Shown: positions 5,242 to 20,000 of the stretch, piece after piece | How the letters are laid out: every line of letters begins with the position of its first letter | Position numbering within the stretch: the first letter of the stretch is position 1 | From: an uncultured virus (IMG/VR IMGVR_UViG_3300005537_000025) | Taxonomy: Duplodnaviria; Heunggongvirae; Uroviricota; Caudoviricetes | Reading direction: 5' to 3' (one strand) | Virus record (IMG/VR): IMGVR_UViG_3300005537_000025 | Length of the DNA stretch: 20,000 bases | Notes under the pieces: model-generated | What the model saw: only the letters and a program-made list of their open reading frames with translations | What the model was told of the DNA's origin: nothing | The model's database searches: none | Position numbers and translations under genes: made by a program

Positions 5242-6084
5242 GTGAAGCCCCCCTTTACGTATTTCGGCGGCAAGACGCGGATTGCCGCCGAGATCGCCTC
5301 GCTGCTGCCGCAGCACGAGCATTACGTCGAGCCGTTCGCGGGAAGCCTGGCGGTCCTGCTGGCCAAGCCGCAGTCGATGATGGAGACGGTCAGTGACCTC
5401 GACGGCGATCTCGTGGCGTTCTGGCGTACGCTGCGGGAACGCCCGGACGACCTTGAGCGCGCATGCTTCCTGACTCCGCACTCGCGGGCAGAGCACGCTG
5501 ACGCCATCCGGATCGCGGAAGGCACGGACGAGCTGGAGCGGGCCCGCCGCGTGTGGATACGGCTCACCCAGGGCCGGAGCGGGCAGCTGCACCACCTCAC
5601 CGGCTGGAGGCACTACCAGGATGCGCGCGGCTCGCGGACCACGATGCCGGACTATCTCGCGGCCTACGCCGGGCGGATCGCTCCCGCTGCGGCAAGGCTC
5701 GCGGGTGTCTCGCTGGAATGCCTGCCCGCGCTGGAGGTCATCAGCCGCTACGGCCGCCACGAGAACGTCCTGATTTACGCCGATCCTCCGTATCTGGAGG
5801 AGACCCGCTCGTCGGCCGGCCGCGGCCCGTCGTACCAGCACGAGATGCGCACCGAGGCTGAGCACGCAGAGCTTGCCGAGGCGCTGCTGGCGGCCCGGGC
5901 GGCAGTCGTCCTGTCGGGCTACGACTCGCCGCTGTACTCATCGGCCTACGATGGCTGGCACCGGGTCGAGTTCCCGGCGTTCACCGGCAACTCGCACGAC
6001 GGGACCGCGCGGCGAACCGAGGTTCTGTGGTCGAACCGCCCGTTCGCGCAGGGCAGCCTGTTCGACGGGCTGGAGACGGCGTGA
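5242..6084 (+). CDS. DNA adenine methyltransferase, D12/Dam-like class (orphan)
   Basis: YFGGK, YVEPFAG (SAM binding), YADPPY (catalytic motif IV), LSGY and TEVLWSN motifs; GAGGAG RBS. Confidence 0.93.
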   Translation: MKPPFTYFGGKTRIAAEIASLLPQHEHYVEPFAGSLAVLLAKPQSMMETVSDLDGDLVAFWRTLRERPDDLERACFLTPHSRAEHADAIRIAEGTDELERARRVWIRLTQGRSGQLHHLTGWRHYQDARGSRTTMPDYLAAYAGRIAPAAARLAGVSLECLPALEVISRYGRHENVLIYADPPYLEETRSSAGRGPSYQHEMRTEAEHAELAEALLAARAAVVLSGYDSPLYSSAYDGWHRVEFPAFTGNSHDGTARRTEVLWSNRPFAQGSLFDGLETA

Positions 6085-6632
6085 CCCTCCGCATCGTCAC
6101 CGTCTCCCGCGACGACGCGAAAGCGTTCACCGCGATGTGGCACCGGCACCACGGCCACGTCCTCCCGGCCAGCCACAAGTTCAGTGTCGGCGTGGCGGAC
6201 GACGCGGATGTCCTGCTAGGCGTGGCGATCAGCGGCAGGCCGAGCGGCCCGGGCAACCAGGACGGCGTGACGCTGGAGGTGACCCGCTGCACGACGGACG
6301 GCACCGATAATGCCTGCTCCATGCTCTACGGTGCCGCCGCCCGGGCCGCGAAGGCGCTCGGGTGGGGCCGGATCATCACGTACACGCAGGAAGGCGAGTC
6401 GAGGGCCAGCCTGCGGGCCGCCGGCTTCGTGCTCATCGCCGAGCGCAGGCCGCGGACTGACCACTTCGAGTCGTCGCGGCGGTACCGCGAGGACCACGGG
6501 ACCGGCGGAGTTACCCGGTACCTGTGGGAGCGGGTGCTGAACCCGTCGGCCAGGCCGTGGACGTCGGTTTCCCGGCCGGCGCAGGCTGCCTGCCGGGAGA
6601 TGCCGCTGACGCTCTGGGATGGGGCGGCGTGA
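6081..6632 (+). CDS. XF1762-family (Mom-like, GNAT-related) protein
   Basis: WHRHH, HKFSVGV, GVAISGRP, TLEVTRCTTDG, NACSMLYGAA, IITYT…ESxASLRAAGF; GTGA-coupled to the methylase. Confidence 0.8.
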   Translation: MTLRIVTVSRDDAKAFTAMWHRHHGHVLPASHKFSVGVADDADVLLGVAISGRPSGPGNQDGVTLEVTRCTTDGTDNACSMLYGAAARAAKALGWGRIITYTQEGESRASLRAAGFVLIAERRPRTDHFESSRRYREDHGTGGVTRYLWERVLNPSARPWTSVSRPAQAACREMPLTLWDGAA

Positions 6633-9067: not shown

Positions 9068-9486
9068 CCGGGACCGCCCGCATCCGCTGGGAGCAGGCCC
9101 GGTACGGCGGATGGAGCGGCCACGCCGGCACCCTGGACCGGATGTTCATGATCTGGGGAGACGCCAGGTGCTGGACGCTCAGCTCGGCGTTCCCCGTCCT
9201 CTGCGAGAGGTACCGGCGGGACGAGGACCCAGAGGTGCTCAAGCTGGCCGCCGAGGAATGGCTGGAAGAGTTCGCCGTCTCGCTCGGCGCGGTGTTCCCT
9301 GGTGCCGCAGAGGCCCGCTGGGAGGCGCTGAAGGGCTACCTGACCCTCAGCGCAGAGCAGACCGAGGCCGCGCTTCATGCGGCAGAGGCTTCCGGGGAGG
9401 TCGCTGACGCGATCGCGTGGGGCACCCACACCGGAGCCGCGATGTCAGCGCTGGCGAAGATGAGCGAACTGGAGGCCGGGCAGTGA
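9064..9486 (+). CDS. Hypothetical protein
   Basis: GTGA overlaps at both ends. Confidence 0.65.
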   Translation: MTGTARIRWEQARYGGWSGHAGTLDRMFMIWGDARCWTLSSAFPVLCERYRRDEDPEVLKLAAEEWLEEFAVSLGAVFPGAAEARWEALKGYLTLSAEQTEAALHAAEASGEVADAIAWGTHTGAAMSALAKMSELEAGQ

Positions 9487-9824
9487 CCGCGATCAGGCTC
9501 AGCCACGAGACGTCTGACGACCTGGTGGTCATCACCGTCGCCGGGTCCGTGGACTTCCGCACCGCCCCGCAGCTTCGCGAACTGGCCAGGAGCATCACCG
9601 AGGAGAACATTGCCCCGCTCGTCATCGACCTGGACGGCGTCACGTTCCTCGACAACGTGGGCGTCGGCGTCCTGGTGGGCGCGATGAAACGTCAGGAGGC
9701 CCGTGGCAGCCAGTTCGCCATCGCGTGCACCGCCGAGCCGGTGCTGCGGGTGCTGCGGACCATGGGCCTGCTCGGGCGCATGGGGGTGCGCGGGAGCGTC
9801 GACGAGGCCGGGGTGAGGCCCTGA
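9483..9824 (+). CDS. STAS-domain anti-sigma factor antagonist (SpoIIAA/RsbV/BldG-like), with DNVG in place of DS[ST]G
   Basis: VVITVAGSVDFRTAPQLRE…LVIDLDGVTFLDNVGVGVLV…VLRVLRTMGL; GGAGG RBS. Confidence 0.88.
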   Translation: MTAIRLSHETSDDLVVITVAGSVDFRTAPQLRELARSITEENIAPLVIDLDGVTFLDNVGVGVLVGAMKRQEARGSQFAIACTAEPVLRVLRTMGLLGRMGVRGSVDEAGVRP

Positions 9825-12681: not shown

Positions 12682-12870
12682 GTGAAGCGCACCACCGAGC
12701 TGTGCCCCCACTGCGAGCAGCCGATGCCGGAGAGACGGACCTGCGCCCGGCCGGACTGCGGGAGCGCGTTCAGGAACCGCCGGGCTGACGCCGTGTACTG
12801 CTCGAAGGGCTGCGCGAGGGTCATGGCCCAGCGGGCTCTGCGCGAACGGCAGCGGAAGCTGGCGGCATGA
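12682..12870 (+). CDS. Small zinc-finger DNA-binding protein
   Basis: CPHC, CARPDC…F…R.DAVYCSKGC plus basic C-terminal helix; ATGA-coupled to next gene. Confidence 0.72.
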   Translation: MKRTTELCPHCEQPMPERRTCARPDCGSAFRNRRADAVYCSKGCARVMAQRALRERQRKLAA

Positions 12871-13526
12871 GCAACCGCCGCAAGCTGAAGACCGCACTGG
12901 CCATCACCGCGGCCGTCGCGAAACAGCAGCCGCGCAGGCCCTGGAACAAGGGCCTGGCCCTGACGAGGAACCCGTCTCTCAGCACAGTGCGGCGCTGGCT
13001 GGAAGCCGGCGTGGCCGAGGGCATCATCGACCGGCAGCCCATGCCGACAGGGAAGCCCGGCCGGCCGCCGATCTTCTACCGGATCTCGGAGAAGGGCCTG
13101 GAGCAGGCCAGGGAACGGCCGCAGGTCCCGGCGAAGCTCCGGATGGAGCAGCACCGCAGGTGGCTCAACGCACGGAAACGACGGCTCGACCAGCGCAAGG
13201 CAGCCGCCACGCGGGAGCTCAGGCACGCGGAAAGCGACCTGCGCATCGCCGAGAGGCAGCTGCGCGAGCTGGAGATACGCCGCGACGCCGCCGCTGAGCG
13301 GCTGGCAGGGCTGGAGGCCGTGGCCGAGATGCTGTACGACGCCTCTACCGCGCTCGACCGCGCCGGCTACGACCCGTCGGTGCTGCTCCCGGAGGAGATC
13401 GACGTGCTCACCGAGCATGGCTGCGTCGCCCCGGATGGTGACCGGCTGTACTTCACCCGGGACTGGGCCGGTGCGTACGCTGAGGCGCGAGGCGGCGGTA
13501 TCCAGCCGGTCCCGGCAACGGCATAA
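12867..13526 (+). CDS. Winged-HTH protein with coiled-coil C-terminal region
   Basis: STVRRWLEAGVAEGIIDR…GKPGRPPIFYRISEKG wing motif followed by an R/E/L/A-rich heptad region. Confidence 0.72.
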   Translation: MSNRRKLKTALAITAAVAKQQPRRPWNKGLALTRNPSLSTVRRWLEAGVAEGIIDRQPMPTGKPGRPPIFYRISEKGLEQARERPQVPAKLRMEQHRRWLNARKRRLDQRKAAATRELRHAESDLRIAERQLRELEIRRDAAAERLAGLEAVAEMLYDASTALDRAGYDPSVLLPEEIDVLTEHGCVAPDGDRLYFTRDWAGAYAEARGGGIQPVPATA

Positions 13527-13560
13527 CCGGCTCACGGCGGCCACGCCTGACGACAGGCTA

Positions 13561-13597
13561 AGCCTGCGCCGGTAGACTCCGGTGCAGGCTGTTTCTT
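13561..13597 (+). terminator. Intrinsic terminator
   Basis: AGCCTGCGCCGG-TAGACT-CCGGTGCAGGCT 12-bp stem (one G-U) followed by GTTTCTT. Confidence 0.7.
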
Positions 13598-13749
13598 GAC
13601 AAGTCCATAACCCATGGCGTGCCCGTCCGCCACTGACGGGGCGGCAGGTTCACCGCGCGCAGCCAGGCATCCCTGGCCGGCGCAGATGCGGGAGCCTGCC
13701 CGGGACAGCTCTGCTGCTGTCCGCTGTACTGAACGTCCCCCGGGCTGTC

Positions 13750-13920
13750 CGTGCGAGCGGCCCGGTGGTGCCCGGAACCCCCGGGGGCCGCTCGCGTGCA
13801 GGTCACACGGCACGAACCCTGGCTGGATTGAGCGGCGGTTAAGCCGCTAGAGGCCAGCATTCAGGACCGCTCGCAAGCCACCGCATTCCCGCAGGCCATA
13901 CCCGGTGAAAACCGGGAGCG
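13750..13920 (+). promoter_or_regulatory. CRISPR leader
   Basis: Non-coding region at the non-degenerate end of the array; inverted repeat GCGAGCGGCCC (13753-13763)/GGGCCGCTCGC (13785-13795) plus a third copy CCGCTCGC (13867-13874). Confidence 0.65.
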
Positions 13921-15054
13921 GTCGTAACGCATGCTCAGCTGCGTACCTGCTGAGACCATGTCCATGGTCGTCGCCTCCTCACGTTTGTCCTACGGTCGTA
14001 ACGCATGCTCAGCTGCGTACCTGCTGAGACCGGGATTAATGGTTGCACTCGATCTAGGGCAACGTTAAGGTCGCAACGCATGCTCAGCTGCGTACCTGCT
14101 GAGACGAACTCAAGCACCGCTTCGGCAATCCTGGCGCGCTCATGGTCGCAACGCATGCTCAGCTGCGTACCTGCTGAGACCACACGCAACGGTAAGTTAG
14201 CACTAATTTAGCGCTAGTCGCAACGCATGCTCAGCTGCGTACCTGCTGAGACCTCAGATCCCATGCGTCGGGCGGGATGTCCACTCCGCGGTCGCAACGC
14301 ATGCTCAGCTGCGTACCTGCTGAGACCACCACCACCTACCCGTGCCATGAGTGCATGCGGCGTCGCAACGCATGCTCAGCTGCGTACCTGCTGAGACGCT
14401 GTGGGTGGAGCGTGCGGCTGAAGGCACCCTGGACGTCGTAACGCATGCTCAGCTGCGTACCTGCTGAGACCCACGCCGAGGCAGCGAAGCCAGTGGCGTG
14501 TGCGCGGTCGCAACGCATGCTCAGCTGCGTACCTGCTGAGACCTCCGTTATCCCAGGAACGGTGAAGCATACCCTGTAAGAGTCGCAACGCATGCTCAGC
14601 TGCGTACCTGCTGAGACCACCACCACCTACCCGTGCCATGAGTGCATGCGGCGTCGCAACGCATGCTCAGCTGCGTACCTGCTGAGACTGAGCTGAGACT
14701 GGCCGCGGGTGGAGCCCTCGTCCTGGTCGCAACGCATGCTCAGCTGCGTAAACGCTGAGACCCGGCTGTCCCAGGTGCGCTTGTGTTCGTGCGCGTTGTC
14801 GTAACGCATGCTCAGCTGCGTAAACGCTGAGACGACGCCTACCTGGTCGGCCTGACCGCTACCCCGGTCAAGTCGCAACGCATGCTCAGCTGCGTAAACG
14901 CTGAGACGTGATGCCGACGCAACACGAGTCTCCGCCGGGCTGCGGTGGTAACGCATGCTCGGGTGCGTACCTGCTGAGACATCCACCTCAATAGCGCCTC
15001 GACCCTGGGGCCTCTGCGGCCGCAACGTCCGCTCAGCGCCGTATCTGCTGAGAC
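13921..15054 (+). CRISPR. CRISPR array: 16 repeats (36 bp, GTCGCAACGCATGCTCAGCTGCGTACCTGCTGAGAC) and 15 spacers (35-39 bp, 14 unique)
   Basis: Repeats start at 13921, 13995, 14070, 14145, 14217, 14291, 14362, 14435, 14507, 14582, 14653, 14726, 14798, 14872, 14945 and 15019; last two degenerate; 3' hairpin CTCAGC-N9-GCTGAG then AC. Orientation inferred from degeneracy. Confidence 0.98.
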
Positions 15055-15174
15055 ATCCATCTTGAGATCGCGCCGATCGCTGCGACCACGAGACGGTGCG
15101 AGTCAGTCTCCGGGCATTCGTGGATGGGGTTCTGCCTGACGGCGGCAAGCCGACTCGGCAACCCGGCGGACGGC

Positions 15175-15198
15175 GTTTCTGGGGAATTCCTGGGGACG
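15175..15198 (+). repeat. Integrase arm-type site, left copy
   Basis: GTTTCTGGGGAATTCCTGGGGACG, identical to 15438-15461; each copy contains tandem CTGGGGA. Confidence 0.8.
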
Positions 15199-15225
15199 AG
15201 ACTAGCCGTGAACGTGAGCGGATAT

Positions 15226-15245
15226 CGCTGAACGCCGCTGAACGC
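15226..15245 (+). repeat. Tandem 10-bp direct repeat (possible Xis/accessory-protein sites)
   Basis: CGCTGAACGC x2 between the left arm site and the core. Confidence 0.5.
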
Positions 15246-15347
15246 GACTTTGCCGTTGGGCCTCTGACCTGGCGAACCGAAAACGTCCTGGTCGGAACAG
15301 TGAGAACATCCTGGTTTAACGTAACCCGTGAACTTACGGCTACTTTC

Positions 15348-15391
15348 TTCGGGACGAAGAGGCCGCCGGTTCAAATCCGGCCACCCCGACC
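15348..15391 (+). mobile_element. att core: 3' half of tRNA-Pro(CGG), attP-like
   Basis: TTCGGGACGAAGAGGCCGCCGGTTCAAATCCGGCCACCCCGACC: anticodon loop, T-arm GCCGG-TTCAAAT-CCGGC and 3' acceptor strand; no 5' half or D-arm upstream. Confidence 0.88.
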
Positions 15392-17017
15392 CAGGTCAGA
15401 GGCGGTGCCCCGAGGAAACGGGAGCACCGCTTCACTTGTTTCTGGGGAATTCCTGGGGACGGCCCTGGGCCTGCGCGCCTCGAGCCGCTCCCGCAGCAGC
15501 GTGTCGAGCACCGCTGCCGGCGAGCGCTCCGACATCGCCAGCCGCGCGTCCAGCGCGCCCTCCCACGCCGCCGTCATCGCAGCCACGAGCTCGTCGCGCA
15601 TCCTCTGCGTCACGTGACGGTACCGGCCGGAGATCCCGGCGATCTCGTGGCGCAGCCGCTGCTCGCTCAGCACCTCCGGTATCCCCTCCTCCTCCATCCA
15701 CGTCTTCGCCGAGTGGCGCAGCCCGTGAGGAGTGAGCCCCTCGGCGACAGGAAGCCAGCAGAACTGCGCCCGGCCCTGCGCGTTGCGGCCCCGCACCCGC
15801 ATGCCCGGCCAGTCCCCGGCCACCGGGACGGGGCGGCGCGGCAGGGGCGCGCGGGCCGGGAGCCATCCCGATGCCGCAGCCGTGAACAGTTCCTCGAACG
15901 CGGACCTGCGCCAGTGCCACGCGGGACGGTCCGTCCCCGCCTCCCGCCGGTAGCCGCACGCGGCGATGACAGCCTCGACGTGACGGCGTGTCTGCTCGCT
16001 GACGCGGCCCGGCTTGCCGAGCACCGTCGCGACCACGGTCTCCGACACCCCGGCGAGGGCGGCCAGTTCACGCATCGACATGGAGCCGCGCGGGCCTCGC
16101 GGGATGCCCATGCCGCGGAACACGTAGGTCTTCCCGTGACAGGGGCATGGCTCCGGCCGGGTCCGCATGATGTGCTCGGCCAGCAGGCGGGCGAGGAACT
16201 GCGGCTGGTCCAGCGTCCCCCTCGATCCGTCTTTCGGCGGGCAGCGCACCAGCCGGCCGCCAGGGGCGCCGGTCCCGGGGTCTTTCCCGCCGATCTCGTG
16301 AAGCTGCCAGTCCACCCGCAGTGTCCGGGGACGCACGTACCTGCTCTCCAGGCCGACAGTCTCGCCGAGCCGCAGCGCATCCCAGAATCCCGTGACGACC
16401 ATGACGAGCTCGTCGTCGCGGCCGGAGAGTATCGCCATCCGCTCGGCGATGAGCAGGACGCCGAGCGGGTCGGTGATCATCTTCTCCTCGGCGCTGTCCC
16501 CGGCGGCGCGGCCCGATCTCTTCCCCCTGCCCCTTTTCCGGGTGGCCGGGTTCACGCTGATGTGCGTGCCTGTCGCGTCCTCCAGGCAGGTGTGCAGGGT
16601 GGCCCGCCAGGTCCTGATGCTGTCCGGCTCGTAGCCCCTGGCCCTCTCTGACCGGGCCCATTTGCCGATCATCTCCTCGCTGATGTCGGCGAGGGCTTTG
16701 TGCTGGAAATACGGCAGCAGGTGGTACACGAGGTGCTGCCGGTAGTTCTCCATCGTGGACTCGGCCAGGTCCTGCTTCCTGTACCACGCGCTGGCCCACT
16801 CCCCGAACGTGACCAGCCCCGCACGCGGGTCGATCCAGTCGCCGCCGCGGACCGCTGACTCGGCGTCGTCGGCACCATGCTCGGCGTCCAGCTTCGCCGG
16901 GTACCTTATGACCCGGCCGCCTGCGTCCCGCACGGTGAGGTACCGGCCGTCAGGGTCCTGGTACCGGCCGCGCCAGTAGTCGCCCTTCGGGGATCTCACC
17001 CGCTCCGCGTACGCCAT
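15371..17017 (-). CDS. int: Tyrosine integrase with an inserted LacI-type HTH domain
   Basis: N-terminal WRGRYQDPDG and WIDPRAGLVTFGEW; catalytic R (LRLGE), K (PPKD), HxxR (HGLRH), H (RLRH), Y (GRYRH); stop codon lies in the T-loop of the att core. Confidence 0.95.
   Translation of the reverse strand: MAYAERVRSPKGDYWRGRYQDPDGRYLTVRDAGGRVIRYPAKLDAEHGADDAESAVRGGDWIDPRAGLVTFGEWASAWYRKQDLAESTMENYRQHLVYHLLPYFQHKALADISEEMIGKWARSERARGYEPDSIRTWRATLHTCLEDATGTHISVNPATRKRGRGKRSGRAAGDSAEEKMITDPLGVLLIAERMAILSGRDDELVMVVTGFWDALRLGETVGLESRYVRPRTLRVDWQLHEIGGKDPGTGAPGGRLVRCPPKDGSRGTLDQPQFLARLLAEHIMRTRPEPCPCHGKTYVFRGMGIPRGPRGSMSMRELAALAGVSETVVATVLGKPGRVSEQTRRHVEAVIAACGYRREAGTDRPAWHWRRSAFEELFTAAASGWLPARAPLPRRPVPVAGDWPGMRVRGRNAQGRAQFCWLPVAEGLTPHGLRHSAKTWMEEEGIPEVLSEQRLRHEIAGISGRYRHVTQRMRDELVAAMTAAWEGALDARLAMSERSPAAVLDTLLRERLEARRPRAVPRNSPETSEAVLPFPRGTASDLGRGGRI
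15399..15441 (+). terminator. Hairpin downstream of the att core (likely replacement terminator for the host tRNA)
   Basis: GAGGCGGTGC…GCACCGCTTC stem followed by ACTTGTTT. Confidence 0.55.
15438..15461 (+). repeat. Integrase arm-type site, right copy (inside the int 3' end)
   Basis: Identical to 15175-15198. Confidence 0.8.
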
Positions 17018-17517
17018 CAGCTGTCACCATCCAGGATCTCCCCCGCTCTCGCGACGGCCAGGTCGAGCGTGGACGATCCCAGCTCGGCCTCCAGGTCGCC
17101 GCAGGTCTCCCGGACCCGCTCGTACCTGCTGCCGCCGCGGTCCCTCAGGGTGCGCGCGGCGGCGCGCGCGGCCGCGTCAAGCCGCGCGACCGCCCGGGCG
17201 GTCTCGTCGTGCGCCTGCCTCAGCGATGAGATGGCACCTTCGACCAGCGCCATCTCGGCAGCTTCATCGCCGGCCCAGAACAGCCTGTCGACGGAGATGC
17301 CGAGGATGTCGCATACGGCGCGGCCCTCGTACATCTCCATGCGCCGCCCCGAGTGCTCCACCTTGTAGACCGTGGACTGGAACCAGGGGAAACCCCGCTT
17401 CACCATCTCGCGGGCGAGGGCTTCCTGGCTCATGCCCCGGAACTCCCGGTACCGGCGCACGTTATCGCCGACCTCCCGCGGATGCTCCCGCTGCGGCTCC
17501 TCATCACCTGGCGACAT
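17017..17517 (-). CDS. XRE-family immunity repressor
   Basis: VGDNVRRYREFRGMSQEALAREM…WFQSTVYKVEHSGRR; TGATG-coupled to int; probable leaderless start at 17517. Confidence 0.88.
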   Translation of the reverse strand: MSPGDEEPQREHPREVGDNVRRYREFRGMSQEALAREMVKRGFPWFQSTVYKVEHSGRRMEMYEGRAVCDILGISVDRLFWAGDEAAEMALVEGAISSLRQAHDETARAVARLDAAARAAARTLRDRGGSRYERVRETCGDLEAELGSSTLDLAVARAGEILDGDS

Positions 17518-17580
17518 GTGACAAGACATTACATGATCATGGTTTCGTTGCCAATCCCGCCATAGTCGTGACAAGATGAT
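17518..17580. promoter_or_regulatory. Divergent repressor/xis promoter switch
   Basis: Minus strand TTGGCA(17554-17549)-N17-TAATGT(17531-17526)-N8-ATG; overlapping plus-strand TTGCCA (17548-17553); GTGACAAGA repeated at 17518 and 17568. Confidence 0.6.
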
Positions 17581-17625
17581 TTCAGCATGGACGGGGAAAC
17601 CCGGAACGGATGACTGGAGGTGCCG

Positions 17626-17847
17626 GTGCAGGACCGCGACGTGGCCCCGCAGAGGGAGCCGCTCATGTCGTCAGCCGAGCTGGCCGCGTACCTGGGCGGG
17701 GAGATCACGGTCAGCGCGCTGGCCGCATGGCGATCGAGAGGCACCGGGCCGGACTGGATCAAGGTCGGGCACGGCGTGCGCTACAGGCCGGCGGCGGTCG
17801 AGGCGTGGCTGAAAGCGTGCGAGCGCGCAGGAAAGAAGGCGTCATGA
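17626..17847 (+). CDS. Excisionase/AlpA-like HTH protein
   Basis: LMSSAELAAYL…ALAAWRSRGTGPDWIKVGHGVRYRPAAVEAWL; GGAGG 5 nt before GTG 17626. Confidence 0.88.
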   Translation: MQDRDVAPQREPLMSSAELAAYLGGEITVSALAAWRSRGTGPDWIKVGHGVRYRPAAVEAWLKACERAGKKAS

Positions 17848-18143
17848 CCTCCGGGGCACCCGTTCTGTTCAGCGCCGAGGAGGCGTCACCCATCGTGCAC
17901 AAGTCCGCCAACTGGCTGAAAGTCCACGCGCGGACCGGAGCGATCCCGTCAACGAAGCTCGGGCGGACGACGCTGTTCACCCCTCAGCAGCTCGCCGAGA
18001 TCGCCCGCGCCGGCGCCAGGGCGCCGGCGCCGGGTGCCTCTCTGCCGTCACGGGCGCCTCAGCGCCGCCAGGCCGACGATCCCGGCGACGGGACACTCCA
18101 GGCCAGGACTCCGCGCCGCAAGCTCACGAAGGGGTCGGCGTGA
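17844..18143 (+). CDS. Second excisionase-like (HTH_17-type) protein
   Basis: LFSAEEASPIVHKSANWLKVHARTGAIPSTKLGRTTLFTPQQLAEI; ATGA coupling. Confidence 0.8.
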   Translation: MTSGAPVLFSAEEASPIVHKSANWLKVHARTGAIPSTKLGRTTLFTPQQLAEIARAGARAPAPGASLPSRAPQRRQADDPGDGTLQARTPRRKLTKGSA

Positions 18144-18282
18144 CTGCCCGGGGTGAGCTTGCGGCACCGGCCCGGACCATCCGGGCAGCCGGACCTCAGG
18201 ACTCCCTCCCCGCCGCAACCCGGGGACGGTTACCGGAGCGCCGCCGCAGGGGCTGCGCTGCACAAACGGAAGGAAACGAGCT

Positions 18283-19125
18283 GTGAAGCTCATGCACAGG
18301 AGCAAGTACTTCTTCGGGCTGACCGCGCTCACGGCAGGCATCCTCGGCGGCGGGACCCTCGCCGCCACCGCCTACGCCGCAACCCCGTCCTGCGGGCCGT
18401 CCTGCGTGGACGTTTTCAGCGACCAGTTCGGCGACGGCGTTACCGGCCACCCGGGCTTCCTGATGGACTCCGCGAAGCAGGGTGTCGCGACTGGTACGTC
18501 GATCATCCTGTTCCGCGAGTCGAACCATGACCCGGCCGAGGACTTCGTCTTCGAGAATCAGGGCACGGTATCGGACTTCGCCCAGGCCGGCCTTGTCAGC
18601 CCGATGACCTCTCTGCACTACGGCTGCATCGCGGGCACTGTCGCGTTCCCGACATGCGTGTTCGGGACCGACGAAAGCGACGGGAACGCGAACCTGGATG
18701 CGTACGAGATCGAGTACACCCCGTTCGGTGCCGCGACCGGCGAGTGCGCCGGACTCGCCGCCACCCCTGTTGCGGGCGAGAAGGTGACGCTGCAGCCGTG
18801 CGGCGTCTCCGGCAGGACAGTGTGGATCGTCGACGCCTTCGATGGCAGCGGCGGCCCGGAGCAGTTCGGGGACAGCAACAGTTTCGGCGAGTCGACGGGC
18901 ACTGAGGACGGCGTTCCCCTGATCAACGGGGCGAACACGAACTTCTCTCACCCGTTCGTCCTCACCTACCCGGATGGCTACCCGACCGACCAGCCGCGCC
19001 CGGTCCTCCAGGTGACGAACCTGACAGGCTTCTTCCGCGGCATCTTCCCGGACAACACGACGGCGACGATGGACGTGAGCAGCAGCCAGCTGTGGGACGC
19101 GCTGACGGGGACCGTCCAGCGCTGA
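18283..19125 (+). CDS. Secreted protein, possibly ricin-B/beta-trefoil-like
   Basis: Sec-type signal (basic N-terminus, hydrophobic core, AYA-A); paired Cys; ECAG…VTLQPC…VW pattern; AAGGA RBS. Confidence 0.75.
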   Translation: MKLMHRSKYFFGLTALTAGILGGGTLAATAYAATPSCGPSCVDVFSDQFGDGVTGHPGFLMDSAKQGVATGTSIILFRESNHDPAEDFVFENQGTVSDFAQAGLVSPMTSLHYGCIAGTVAFPTCVFGTDESDGNANLDAYEIEYTPFGAATGECAGLAATPVAGEKVTLQPCGVSGRTVWIVDAFDGSGGPEQFGDSNSFGESTGTEDGVPLINGANTNFSHPFVLTYPDGYPTDQPRPVLQVTNLTGFFRGIFPDNTTATMDVSSSQLWDALTGTVQR

Positions 19126-19281
19126 CGCGGCGAAGTACGGAAGGCGGCCGTGATGGCATACACCAGGGTTCGGGTCCCTGGGCGGCGCGCATGCCGGGCG
19201 AAGTACTGCAGAGCCCGTCATACCGGCACATTATCCCGGACTCCGGGAGTATCCTTTCTGACCGTTAACAGACAACCCCGG

Positions 19282-19737
19282 ATGGTGATCACGATGGACG
19301 GAACCGGAGAGGGCGCCGCGCCTGGGACCGTGCCGATCGCGTACCGGTACCGGGTCCGGGGCCCGGTACAGGACCCGGTCATGGCAGAGGTCCGCCGCGT
19401 GCACGAGCTGGCCAACGAGGACGTCGCGGCCGAGCGGAAGTACCAGGAGGAGAAGGACGCCGCCTGGGAAGCTGACCCGCAGGTTACCCCGATCCTCGCG
19501 GCCCTCCGCGAGGCGGAGGGGGCCGCCGAGTCCGCCGGGCAAGCCCTCTCGAGGGCGAAGTCCCGCCTCGGGTACGCGAAGCGGCAAGGGAACCCGGCGG
19601 CCATCATCGCCGCGGAGGATGCGGTGCGGGCGGCGAAAGCAGCCCTTGCCCTGGCGAGGGAAGCCGCAGCTGCGGCGGCGGCGCAGCTCGATGTTCTTCC
19701 CCGGCAGGTGGTGATCCCGCTGAGCCACCCGCCGTAG
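19282..19737 (+). pseudogene. N-terminal fragment of a Cas12m (type V-M/V-U1)-like effector
   Basis: AYRYRVRG…EVRRVHELANEDVAAERKYQEEKDAAWEADPQV followed by a long Ala/Arg coiled coil resembles the Cas12m N-terminus as I recall it; no RuvC; the last ~17 codons are antisense cas1. Confidence 0.65.
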
Positions 19738-19886
19738 GAGAACCAGCACACCGGGATCTGCGCGGCCAGCGCCTTCCGCAGCGCCTGCGCGGTCACCATG
19801 GCGTTGCCGCGTATGCAGATCTGCGACACGTCCAGGACCCGGACCGACGACAGTTCCGCGCCTTTCAGGCGGACCTCGAAGCGGCG
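19673..19886 (-). pseudogene. cas1: Internal fragment of cas1 (Cas4-Cas1 fusion type), frameshifted
   Basis: RFEVRLKGAELSSVRVLDVSQICIRGNAMVTAQALRKALAAQIPVCWFSYGGWLSGIT, frameshift at ~19708, then LPGKNIELRRR. Confidence 0.88.
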
Positions 19887-20000
19887 GTGGACTCGACGAG
19901 CTCGGTCAGGCAGTCGGTACCCTGGACCGCACCCTCGAACTCGACGCCGATTTCCACCACGCACAGCTGGTAGCCGAACCCGGCCGGGGGGATGATGTAC
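19865..20000 (-). CDS. 3' part of a gene entering from beyond the window, probably truncated at the cas1 junction
   Basis: Open GC3-rich frame YIIPPAGFGYQLCVVEIGVEFEGAVQGTDCLTELVEST, which stops a few codons into cas1-derived sequence. Confidence 0.5.
   Translation of the reverse strand, partial: YIIPPAGFGYQLCVVEIGVEFEGAVQGTDCLTELVESTAASRSA

Follow-up and report, generated by a model that had tools for sequence, protein, structure and literature searches.

What is a CRISPR array doing beside the attachment site of a phage in which cas genes survive only as fragments? The question is raised by a 20,000-nt stretch of DNA, here called the window, from an uncultured virus of the Caudoviricetes (IMG/VR record IMGVR_UViG_3300005537_000025), which is the minus strand of positions 29539-49538 of one 135,301-bp record. 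An initial annotation, made from the letters alone, had described a 16-repeat array with a leader ending ~120 bp from the left attachment arm, no intact cas gene in the window, and Cas12m-like and cas1 fragments beyond the integrase (int), repressor and excisionase (xis) genes. Repeat and spacer calls show the array to be real, both fragments are present, and the lack of an intact cas gene holds for the window and for the whole record alike. The array is thus an orphan within a complete circular genome, in which no intact cas12m was found. We give a probability of about 0.6 to the reading that a temperate 135-kb phage of actinobacterial type carries here a type V-M (Cas12m) locus from which the effector has recently been lost.

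The array, of type V-M style, occupies 13921-15054 on the plus strand and consists of 16 repeats, each 36 nt long (consensus GTCGCAACGCATGCTCAGCTGCGTACCTGCTGAGAC), separated by 15 spacers of 35-39 nt; a covariance model recovers 16/16 repeats. Eleven repeats equal the consensus except at position 5, which is C or T (T in repeats 1, 2 and 8). Repeats 12-14 have AAC in place of CCT in the loop, repeat 13 with an additional T at position 5, and the last two repeats on the right, 15 and 16, have degenerated, as those farthest from the leader usually do. Spacers 6 and 10 are the same and lie inside an exact 107-nt duplication (14291-14397 and 14582-14688), so the array has been changed by recombination too and not by acquisition alone. 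No other pair of spacers is more alike than shuffled sequences, and no second array was found in the record. From the array end it is 120 bp to a putative arm-type integrase site (15175), ~295 bp to the core of the phage attachment site (attP) and 4.2 kb to the cas relic, with int, the repressor gene and an excisionase-like gene in between.

The array was assigned to a type by comparison with loci fetched through Cas12m similarity (19 species genomes, 6 IMG/VR and 33 metagenome loci) and another 23 IMG/VR loci fetched by a degenerate repeat pattern. These 81 loci were taken with flanks of at most 10 kb, many of them lie on short contigs, and some duplicate one another. In the Cas12m-homologue loci the array mostly lies directly downstream of the gene, although the arrays of L061 and L080 lie several kb upstream, and the repeats have in common a 5' GTNGCAAY..GC, a stem of 5-6 bp with a ~9-nt loop, and GAC as their last letters. 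The window repeat fits this family, with its 6-bp stem, 9-nt loop and terminal AC at the 3' end, and differs in its loop, TGCGTACCT as against the common V-M loop GGCTTCGTA. In an alignment of the window repeat with one repeat from each of 20 arrays in Cas12m-homologue loci, 97.6 % of the cells in the 6-bp stem are paired, compared with 64.6 % in shuffles, and five of the six stem pairs show double-sided changes (39 cells). The covariation score is 0.925 versus 0.22, a value reached in 0/500 shuffles, and stem registers slid along the alignment pair in only 25-46 %. The rows of this alignment were chosen by hand, and four came from the pattern search, in which the stem was left unconstrained. 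Four viral contigs (L036, L040, L049 and L057) have the same repeat pattern with an intact Cas12m of 616-650 aa directly upstream on the same strand; the closest of the four repeats, that of L049, is identical to the window repeat at 28/36 nt by manual count.

The leader gives a second line of comparison. An intrinsic-terminator-like hairpin on the plus strand (13561-13590; a 12-bp stem followed by the tail GTTTCTTGAC) closes the upstream gene (12867-13526) and marks the left edge of the V-M-derived segment, for leader homology starts directly after it. The leader itself (13591-13920, plus strand, ~330 nt) aligns to the intergenic regions between cas12m and array in L060 and L059, with a mean column identity of 67 % and several invariant blocks. 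It starts with a CTTGACA..CATA block conserved in both loci and contains an inverted repeat (13753-13763/13785-13795), of which the GCGAGCG...CGCTCGC form is common to the alignment. No sigma-70-type consensus promoter was called in the leader, and an Rfam scan of 13400-15700 gave nothing significant and no CRISPR direct-repeat family. The gene upstream of the leader is an unrelated open reading frame (ORF) of 219 aa and not cas12m as in L059 and L060. Judged by these alignments, the array with its full ~330-nt leader is of the Cas12m kind and is intact. The Cas12-type repeat proposed in the initial annotation can thus be specified as V-M, by its covarying 3' hairpin and by leader homology to loci with intact cas12m. 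The annotation had also named what would speak against it, a repeat clustering with type I-G and an ORF at 19282 free of Cas12 kinship, and neither was found.

That ORF is the cas12m relic (19282-19737, plus strand), which corresponds to the N-terminal ~137 codons of Cas12m. Homology ends at ~19695, after which the frame runs 13-14 codons into antisense cas1 and stops. The ORF has no match in Pfam or PHROG and no useful one in NCBIfam. A phmmer search against 1.84 billion representative proteins returned 18 matches at E <= 1e-3, one of them the window's own product. Of the remaining 17, four are short (93-189 aa) and 13 are 506-818 aa long and align through their first ~130 residues (~7-135), the best with an E value of 8e-16 and 47 % identity. 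The C-terminal 400 residues of the best full-length match, P0002, match Cas12m2 (8hhl, E 4e-42; 8hio), 8pm4 and 23vw ("Cas12m"). The phmmer, profile and structure matches together argue strongly that the predicted product is the N-terminus of a Cas12m, although the link from stump to Cas12m is transitive. A profile of the 13 long proteins run against all six frames of the 135-kb genome found the stump (positions 10-133 of 658, E 1.5e-33) and a weak TnpB match, and no second Cas12m. A Cas12m effector has at least ~600 aa with RuvC-like and zinc-ribbon (TNB) domains; in this genome there is the stump alone. The crRNA processing and DNA binding known for Cas12m need the body that bears RuvC and zinc ribbon; since this body is missing, the array alone would be unable to interfere in this genome.

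Two metagenome contigs are of interest here. One of 147,461 bp encodes P0009, a 137-aa ORF product which matches the Cas12m N-terminus only and may be a second truncated cas12m. The other, L060 (164,559 bp), encodes a Cas12m that is among the nearest to the stump. A run of 32 consecutive tRNA genes and a second array, of 61-nt period, give this contig the look of a large phage that has CRISPR arrays of two kinds.

The second cas fragment converges tail-to-tail with the stump at a distance of ~9 nt (19695 to 19704). It is a piece of a type I-G cas4g/cas1g gene on the minus strand (19704-19883), 60 internal codons corresponding to residues 240-299 of 550, of which 56/60 (93 %) are identical in P0019, a 550-aa metagenomic protein. 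P0019 and P0021 score 738 and 748 bits on the NCBIfam model of the Cas4g/Cas1g fusion (NF049935; cut-off 560), so that the piece is close to members above the cut-off. Whereas NF049935 proteins have ~550 aa, the piece has residues 240-299 only, without a start codon, and lies antisense to the cas12m stump and abuts it. No more of the gene was found in the genome, where the NCBIfam match is limited to positions 230-294 of 546, and no other type I-G gene or other cas family was seen among the 155 gene calls; unlike type I-G systems, the locus lacks both cas2 and any type I-G effector gene. At its far end the piece meets, to within 2 nt, the end of a direct duplication of exactly matching 678-bp copies (window 19881-20558, to 20000 inside the window; genome 28981-29658 and 124328-125005; 100 % identity), which takes in a portion of a DUF4082-domain gene together with the beginning of the gene after it.

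The initial annotation had seen in the two fragments a temperate element that once carried a Cas12m-like effector together with a Cas4-Cas1-type adaptation gene. This ancestor is not borne out. The piece comprises only 60 codons and is 93 % identical to a type I-G protein; tblastn with the piece and two full Cas4g/Cas1g proteins found nothing in the 81 fetched loci (0/81), and no Cas4-Cas1 was found in five whole viral records that have cas12m plus an array (0/5). No close relative of P0019 was found in IMG/VR. Of 15 cas12m-bearing bacterial genomes, three encode a Cas4g/Cas1g that passes the cut-off, an uncontrolled count from which no co-occurrence is concluded; in one genome, G006, the two genes are on separate contigs. 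The best reading of the piece is type I-G DNA that was captured, probably from the host. On a speculative side reading, read-through from the stump would yield antisense RNA, 180 nt of it directed at a type I-G cas4g/cas1g gene of the host, and could dampen spacer acquisition by the host.

The integration module that separates the array from the stump is that of a temperate element, with a tyrosine integrase, a tRNA attP and arm repeats. Two 24-nt direct repeats (GTTTCTGGGGAATTCCTGGGGACG; repeat family D11) on the plus strand, at 15175-15198 and 15438-15461, are 100 % identical and are putative arm-type integrase sites, a function suggested by their position either side of the core. The core (15349-15400, plus strand) is the 3' part of a tRNA gene, with anticodon loop, T-arm and acceptor strand, and is assigned to attP because of this tRNA part, the flanking 24-nt repeats and the integrase gene that ends within it. 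Contigs of a metagenomic run, X1, match 15349-15400 alone and diverge on both sides, one of them with tRNA-like letters before 15348. The Rfam tRNA/tmRNA clan matches the T-arm and acceptor of the core (E 1.9e-4, 5'-truncated), and ARAGORN found no whole tRNA there; by our own reading it is tRNA-Pro(CGG). The integrase (15371-17017, minus strand, 548 aa) has Phage_int_SAM_3, Phage_integrase and LacI matches and belongs with phrog_1 integrases (E 1.4e-29). After integration at the tRNA core the array would lie at one end of the prophage and the stumps ~4 kb from the other, much as the initial annotation had expected.

That the element is a phage is supported by its IMG/VR class (virus with direct terminal repeats), a CheckV completeness of 100 % and a portal gene (Pfam Phage_portal) at 107.8 kb of the genome. 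The record ends overlap by 127 bp and the record was assembled as a circle; its GC content is 69.6 %, and many of its genes are of kinds usual in actinobacterial mobile elements. The portal relatives in cultured phages are distant (24-31 % identity). The whole window, compared by megablast with 50,697 phage records and 72,556 plasmid records, gave 0 matches, and a search for kin of this phage by way of the 219-aa upstream protein, the integrase and the window proteins in the fetched loci found none that were useful.

The gene order is leader-array-attP-int-rep-xis-gene-cas12m (stump), with the stump on the strand of the array. This is a circular permutation of cas12m-leader-array, and in the simplest history cas12m once preceded the leader. 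In the ancestral cassette or genome cas12m would have stood directly before leader and array; illegitimate recombination inside cas12m would then have opened the junction between cas12m and leader, and the cas1 piece and the 678-bp duplication would be scars of this event. The event appears to have been recent because the duplication is 100 % identical and both stumps are without frameshifts, and a recent event would explain why the array has not yet decayed. The array may still be transcribed from the conserved leader.

Several points weigh against this history of recent loss. A relic should decay, yet 14/16 repeats keep the stem and the leader is conserved, which fits continued use as well as it fits recent loss. 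If there was a single event, the 3' part of cas12m must have been lost in addition, and no cas12m remnant was found upstream of the leader. No phage relative showing the ancestral order was found. When the main repeat is folded alone, the 3' hairpin is not the minimum-energy structure and z-scores are near 0; since single-sequence folding is uninformative here, the V-M hairpin rests on covariation and comparison and not on thermodynamics. Finally, the junction is supported by one DNA run, X1 (a soil metagenome; 86 % of sampled words), which is probably the source sample of the record and so is not independent of it.

The foremost alternative is that the array is a functional orphan, whose leader-driven CRISPR RNAs (crRNAs) are used in trans by a Cas12m of the host, of a co-resident prophage or of a plasmid, with DNA binding that silences competing mobile elements or host genes. 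The intact leader and the 14 of 16 intact repeat hairpins agree with such use. Possible partners exist, for cas12m occurs in actinobacterial chromosomes and proviruses (19 genome loci, among them Mycobacterium, Gordonia and Phytoactinopolyspora, the last a provirus), and arrays of archaeal viruses that rely on host Cas proteins are described (PMC6858448). Against it, an exact 24-nt core of the repeat had 0 matches both in IMG/VR contigs and in one genome for each of 185,579 species, and the full-length Cas12m closest to the stump among the 1.84 billion representatives is 48 % identical in its best BLASTP segment. Nor was a target found: blastn of the 15 spacers against the phage and plasmid records gave none, spacers 6/10 and 4 as exact 24-mers gave 0 matches in IMG/VR (the other 13 spacers were not tried there), and no spacer has a self-target in the genome. 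No RNA run was among the sequencing runs listed for this DNA. A search for the host by its tRNA core gave no match in 401 sampled Actinomycetota genomes with up to one mismatch or in five Cas12m-bearing genomes with up to three. On balance we regard use in trans as possible but rather unlikely.

Less probable still, and put forward as speculation, is a variant in which cas12m, leader, array, attP, int, repressor and xis formed a self-contained integrative V-M cassette that entered the phage by a crossover inside cas12m. Its array would still be expressed and its crRNAs loaded on the Cas12m of a host or co-resident element, which would give the prophage a borrowed, DNA-binding superinfection exclusion or silencing.

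An assembly artefact, in which the exact 678-bp repeat joined two molecules and the cas stumps mark the chimeric junction, appears very unlikely. The repeat does abut the cas1 piece with 100 % identity between its copies, and short-read contigs break at its borders, but the cas12m/cas1 junction is set 180 bp into unique sequence, and a 1331-nt contig of run X1 (18528-19858) spans it with no differences and at 26.3x, as deep as the contigs next to it. Coverage of the duplicated segment is 49.6x compared with ~27x in the flanks, the roughly twofold depth expected if one genome has both copies. The repeat pair has structural genes to either side, the portal gene (107.8 kb) in one arc and a tail-fibre-like gene and a gene for a 1008-aa end protein in the other, and even with two molecules the array, attP and both stumps would share one arc. 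Contigs of the run do not cover 13934-14584, where the identical repeats lie. Another contig of the run matches the cas1 piece up to 19779, beyond which its remaining 255 letters differ; its source may be a cas4g/cas1g gene of the same community that is intact and almost identical.

That the array belongs to type I-G and not to Cas12m is hardly credible, for although the cas1 piece is type I-G and type I-G arrays likewise have 36-nt repeats with a period of 70-74 nt, the G006 repeat beside an intact Cas4g/Cas1g (CCATTCCTGGTCATTACGACCAGGCTCCATTGCGGC), whose hairpin is central and whose 3' tail is ATTGCGGC, is unlike the repeat of the window, the repeat and leader of the window match those beside cas12m genes, and the 155 gene calls show no other type I-G gene. 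In the type I-G array of G006 (L093, 13027-16113) the 3' end of the repeat (ATTGCGGC), when reverse-complemented, is similar to the V-M 5' end GTCGCAAY, and type I-G and V-M arrays both have 36-nt repeats with a period of ~72 nt.

Candidate effectors for the array were also sought within the phage. The genome has two DDE transposase genes and three TnpB-type genes (382, 429 and 488 aa) at 20498-24383, 50659-51948 and 104954-106420, all three sites outside the window; the second of them, 50659-51948, is 1.1 kb away from window position 1. All three Pfam domains of TnpB are present in the 382-aa protein, the 429-aa protein is similar throughout its length to an ISDra2-type TnpB, and the closest solved structures to the 488-aa protein are Cas12f, with a match to Cas12f/TnpB in the RuvC-TNB part only. 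All three were rejected as effectors, for the repeat and leader of the array belong to Cas12m loci; the full-length TnpB match of the 429-aa protein and the RuvC-TNB match of the 488-aa protein count against this role as well.

Seen as a V-M locus that has lost its effector, the array can be set beside known systems. MmCas12m, GoCas12m and Cas12m2, of type V-M (formerly V-U1; 8hhl, 8hio, 8pm4, 23vw; PMC11013384, PMC10442227), share with the window 36-nt repeats with a conserved stem-loop next to the spacer. According to PMC11013384, Cas12m processes its own crRNA, binds DNA in a manner dependent on a protospacer-adjacent motif without cleaving it and uses crRNAs of 50-60 nt, and loci of V-U type are typically without adaptation genes. 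The known systems and this locus are alike in having neither adaptation genes nor an anti-repeat like that of a trans-activating crRNA. Outside the array the genome has no exact stretch of at least 12 nt of the repeat or its complement, and hence no lone repeats or anti-repeat of that length; a V-M repeat covariance model recovers the array's 16 repeats and, beyond them, a single weak site (E 0.33), and the only adaptation sequence is the cas1 piece of 60 codons. The locus differs from the known systems in that the effector is reduced to ~137 codons and the array lies 4.2 kb upstream of the stump, with the integration module between, instead of downstream of cas12m.

A V-M locus borne by a phage is, as such, already reported, and the novelty here is modest in that respect. 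A September 2026 preprint (10.64898/2026.09.14.751636) describes in myxophage MV-1 a phage-encoded Cas12m with an array beside it, which it calls the first. The MV-1 locus and the IMG/VR contigs L036, L040, L049, L050 and L057 resemble the present one in being V-M loci on phage genomes without cas1, cas2 or cas4 and without identifiable protospacers. They differ in having an intact Cas12m of 610-650 aa, compared with a stump only, a temperate phage and an array beside attP in the present case. The array directly follows Cas12m in L036, L040, L049 and L057. The supplements of PMC11013384 list 134 Cas12m variants, some of them from IMG/VR, and may already include related phage loci. Orphan and mini-CRISPR arrays of viruses (PMC6858448) are likewise viral arrays without cognate cas genes, but they have 1-2 spacers and host type I repeats and target related viruses, whereas here there are 15 spacers, a class 2 repeat, and no known host array or targets.

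The rest of the window and genome adds some context. The integrase has an unusual architecture, in that a LacI-family helix-turn-helix (HTH; PF00356, E 3.4e-9) is inserted into it: residues 314-358, with the SAM-like domain on the N-terminal side and the catalytic motif on the C-terminal side, make up this HTH. It is followed by a candidate XRE-type HTH repressor of 185 aa on the minus strand (17017-17574; a Pfam HTH_31 match, E 3.4e-4, that falls short of the cut-off, and one to the transcriptional repressors of phrog_3, E 9.6e-7), two excisionase-like HTH_17 genes in tandem on the plus strand (17620-17847 and ~17844-18143; phrog_66 and phrog_1840, both excisionase), and a plus-strand gene (18283-19125) for a 280-aa protein with a signal-peptide-like N-terminus, no family match and a third-position GC fraction (GC3) of 0.90. 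Elsewhere in the window (5242-6632 and 9417-9824) a Dam-type N6-adenine methyltransferase gene is followed by a Mom-like DNA-modification gene, and the early region has a STAS-domain (anti-sigma-antagonist-like) gene. Alongside the portal gene, the genome encodes an 876-aa FtsK-gamma-domain protein and a DUF2637 protein (76871-79501 and 82315-83601), both of kinds typical of actinomycete conjugative elements.

On the reading preferred here, the locus shows clearly how a CRISPR array of class 2, of a kind that serves binding only, can outlive its effector in a temperate phage, with the scars of recombination still legible. The ~330-nt V-M leader and the covarying hairpin are markers by which V-M arrays missed by protein-based CRISPR typing can be recognised. 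If a Cas12m acting in trans does use the array, phages could carry just the cheap, programmable half of a silencing system.

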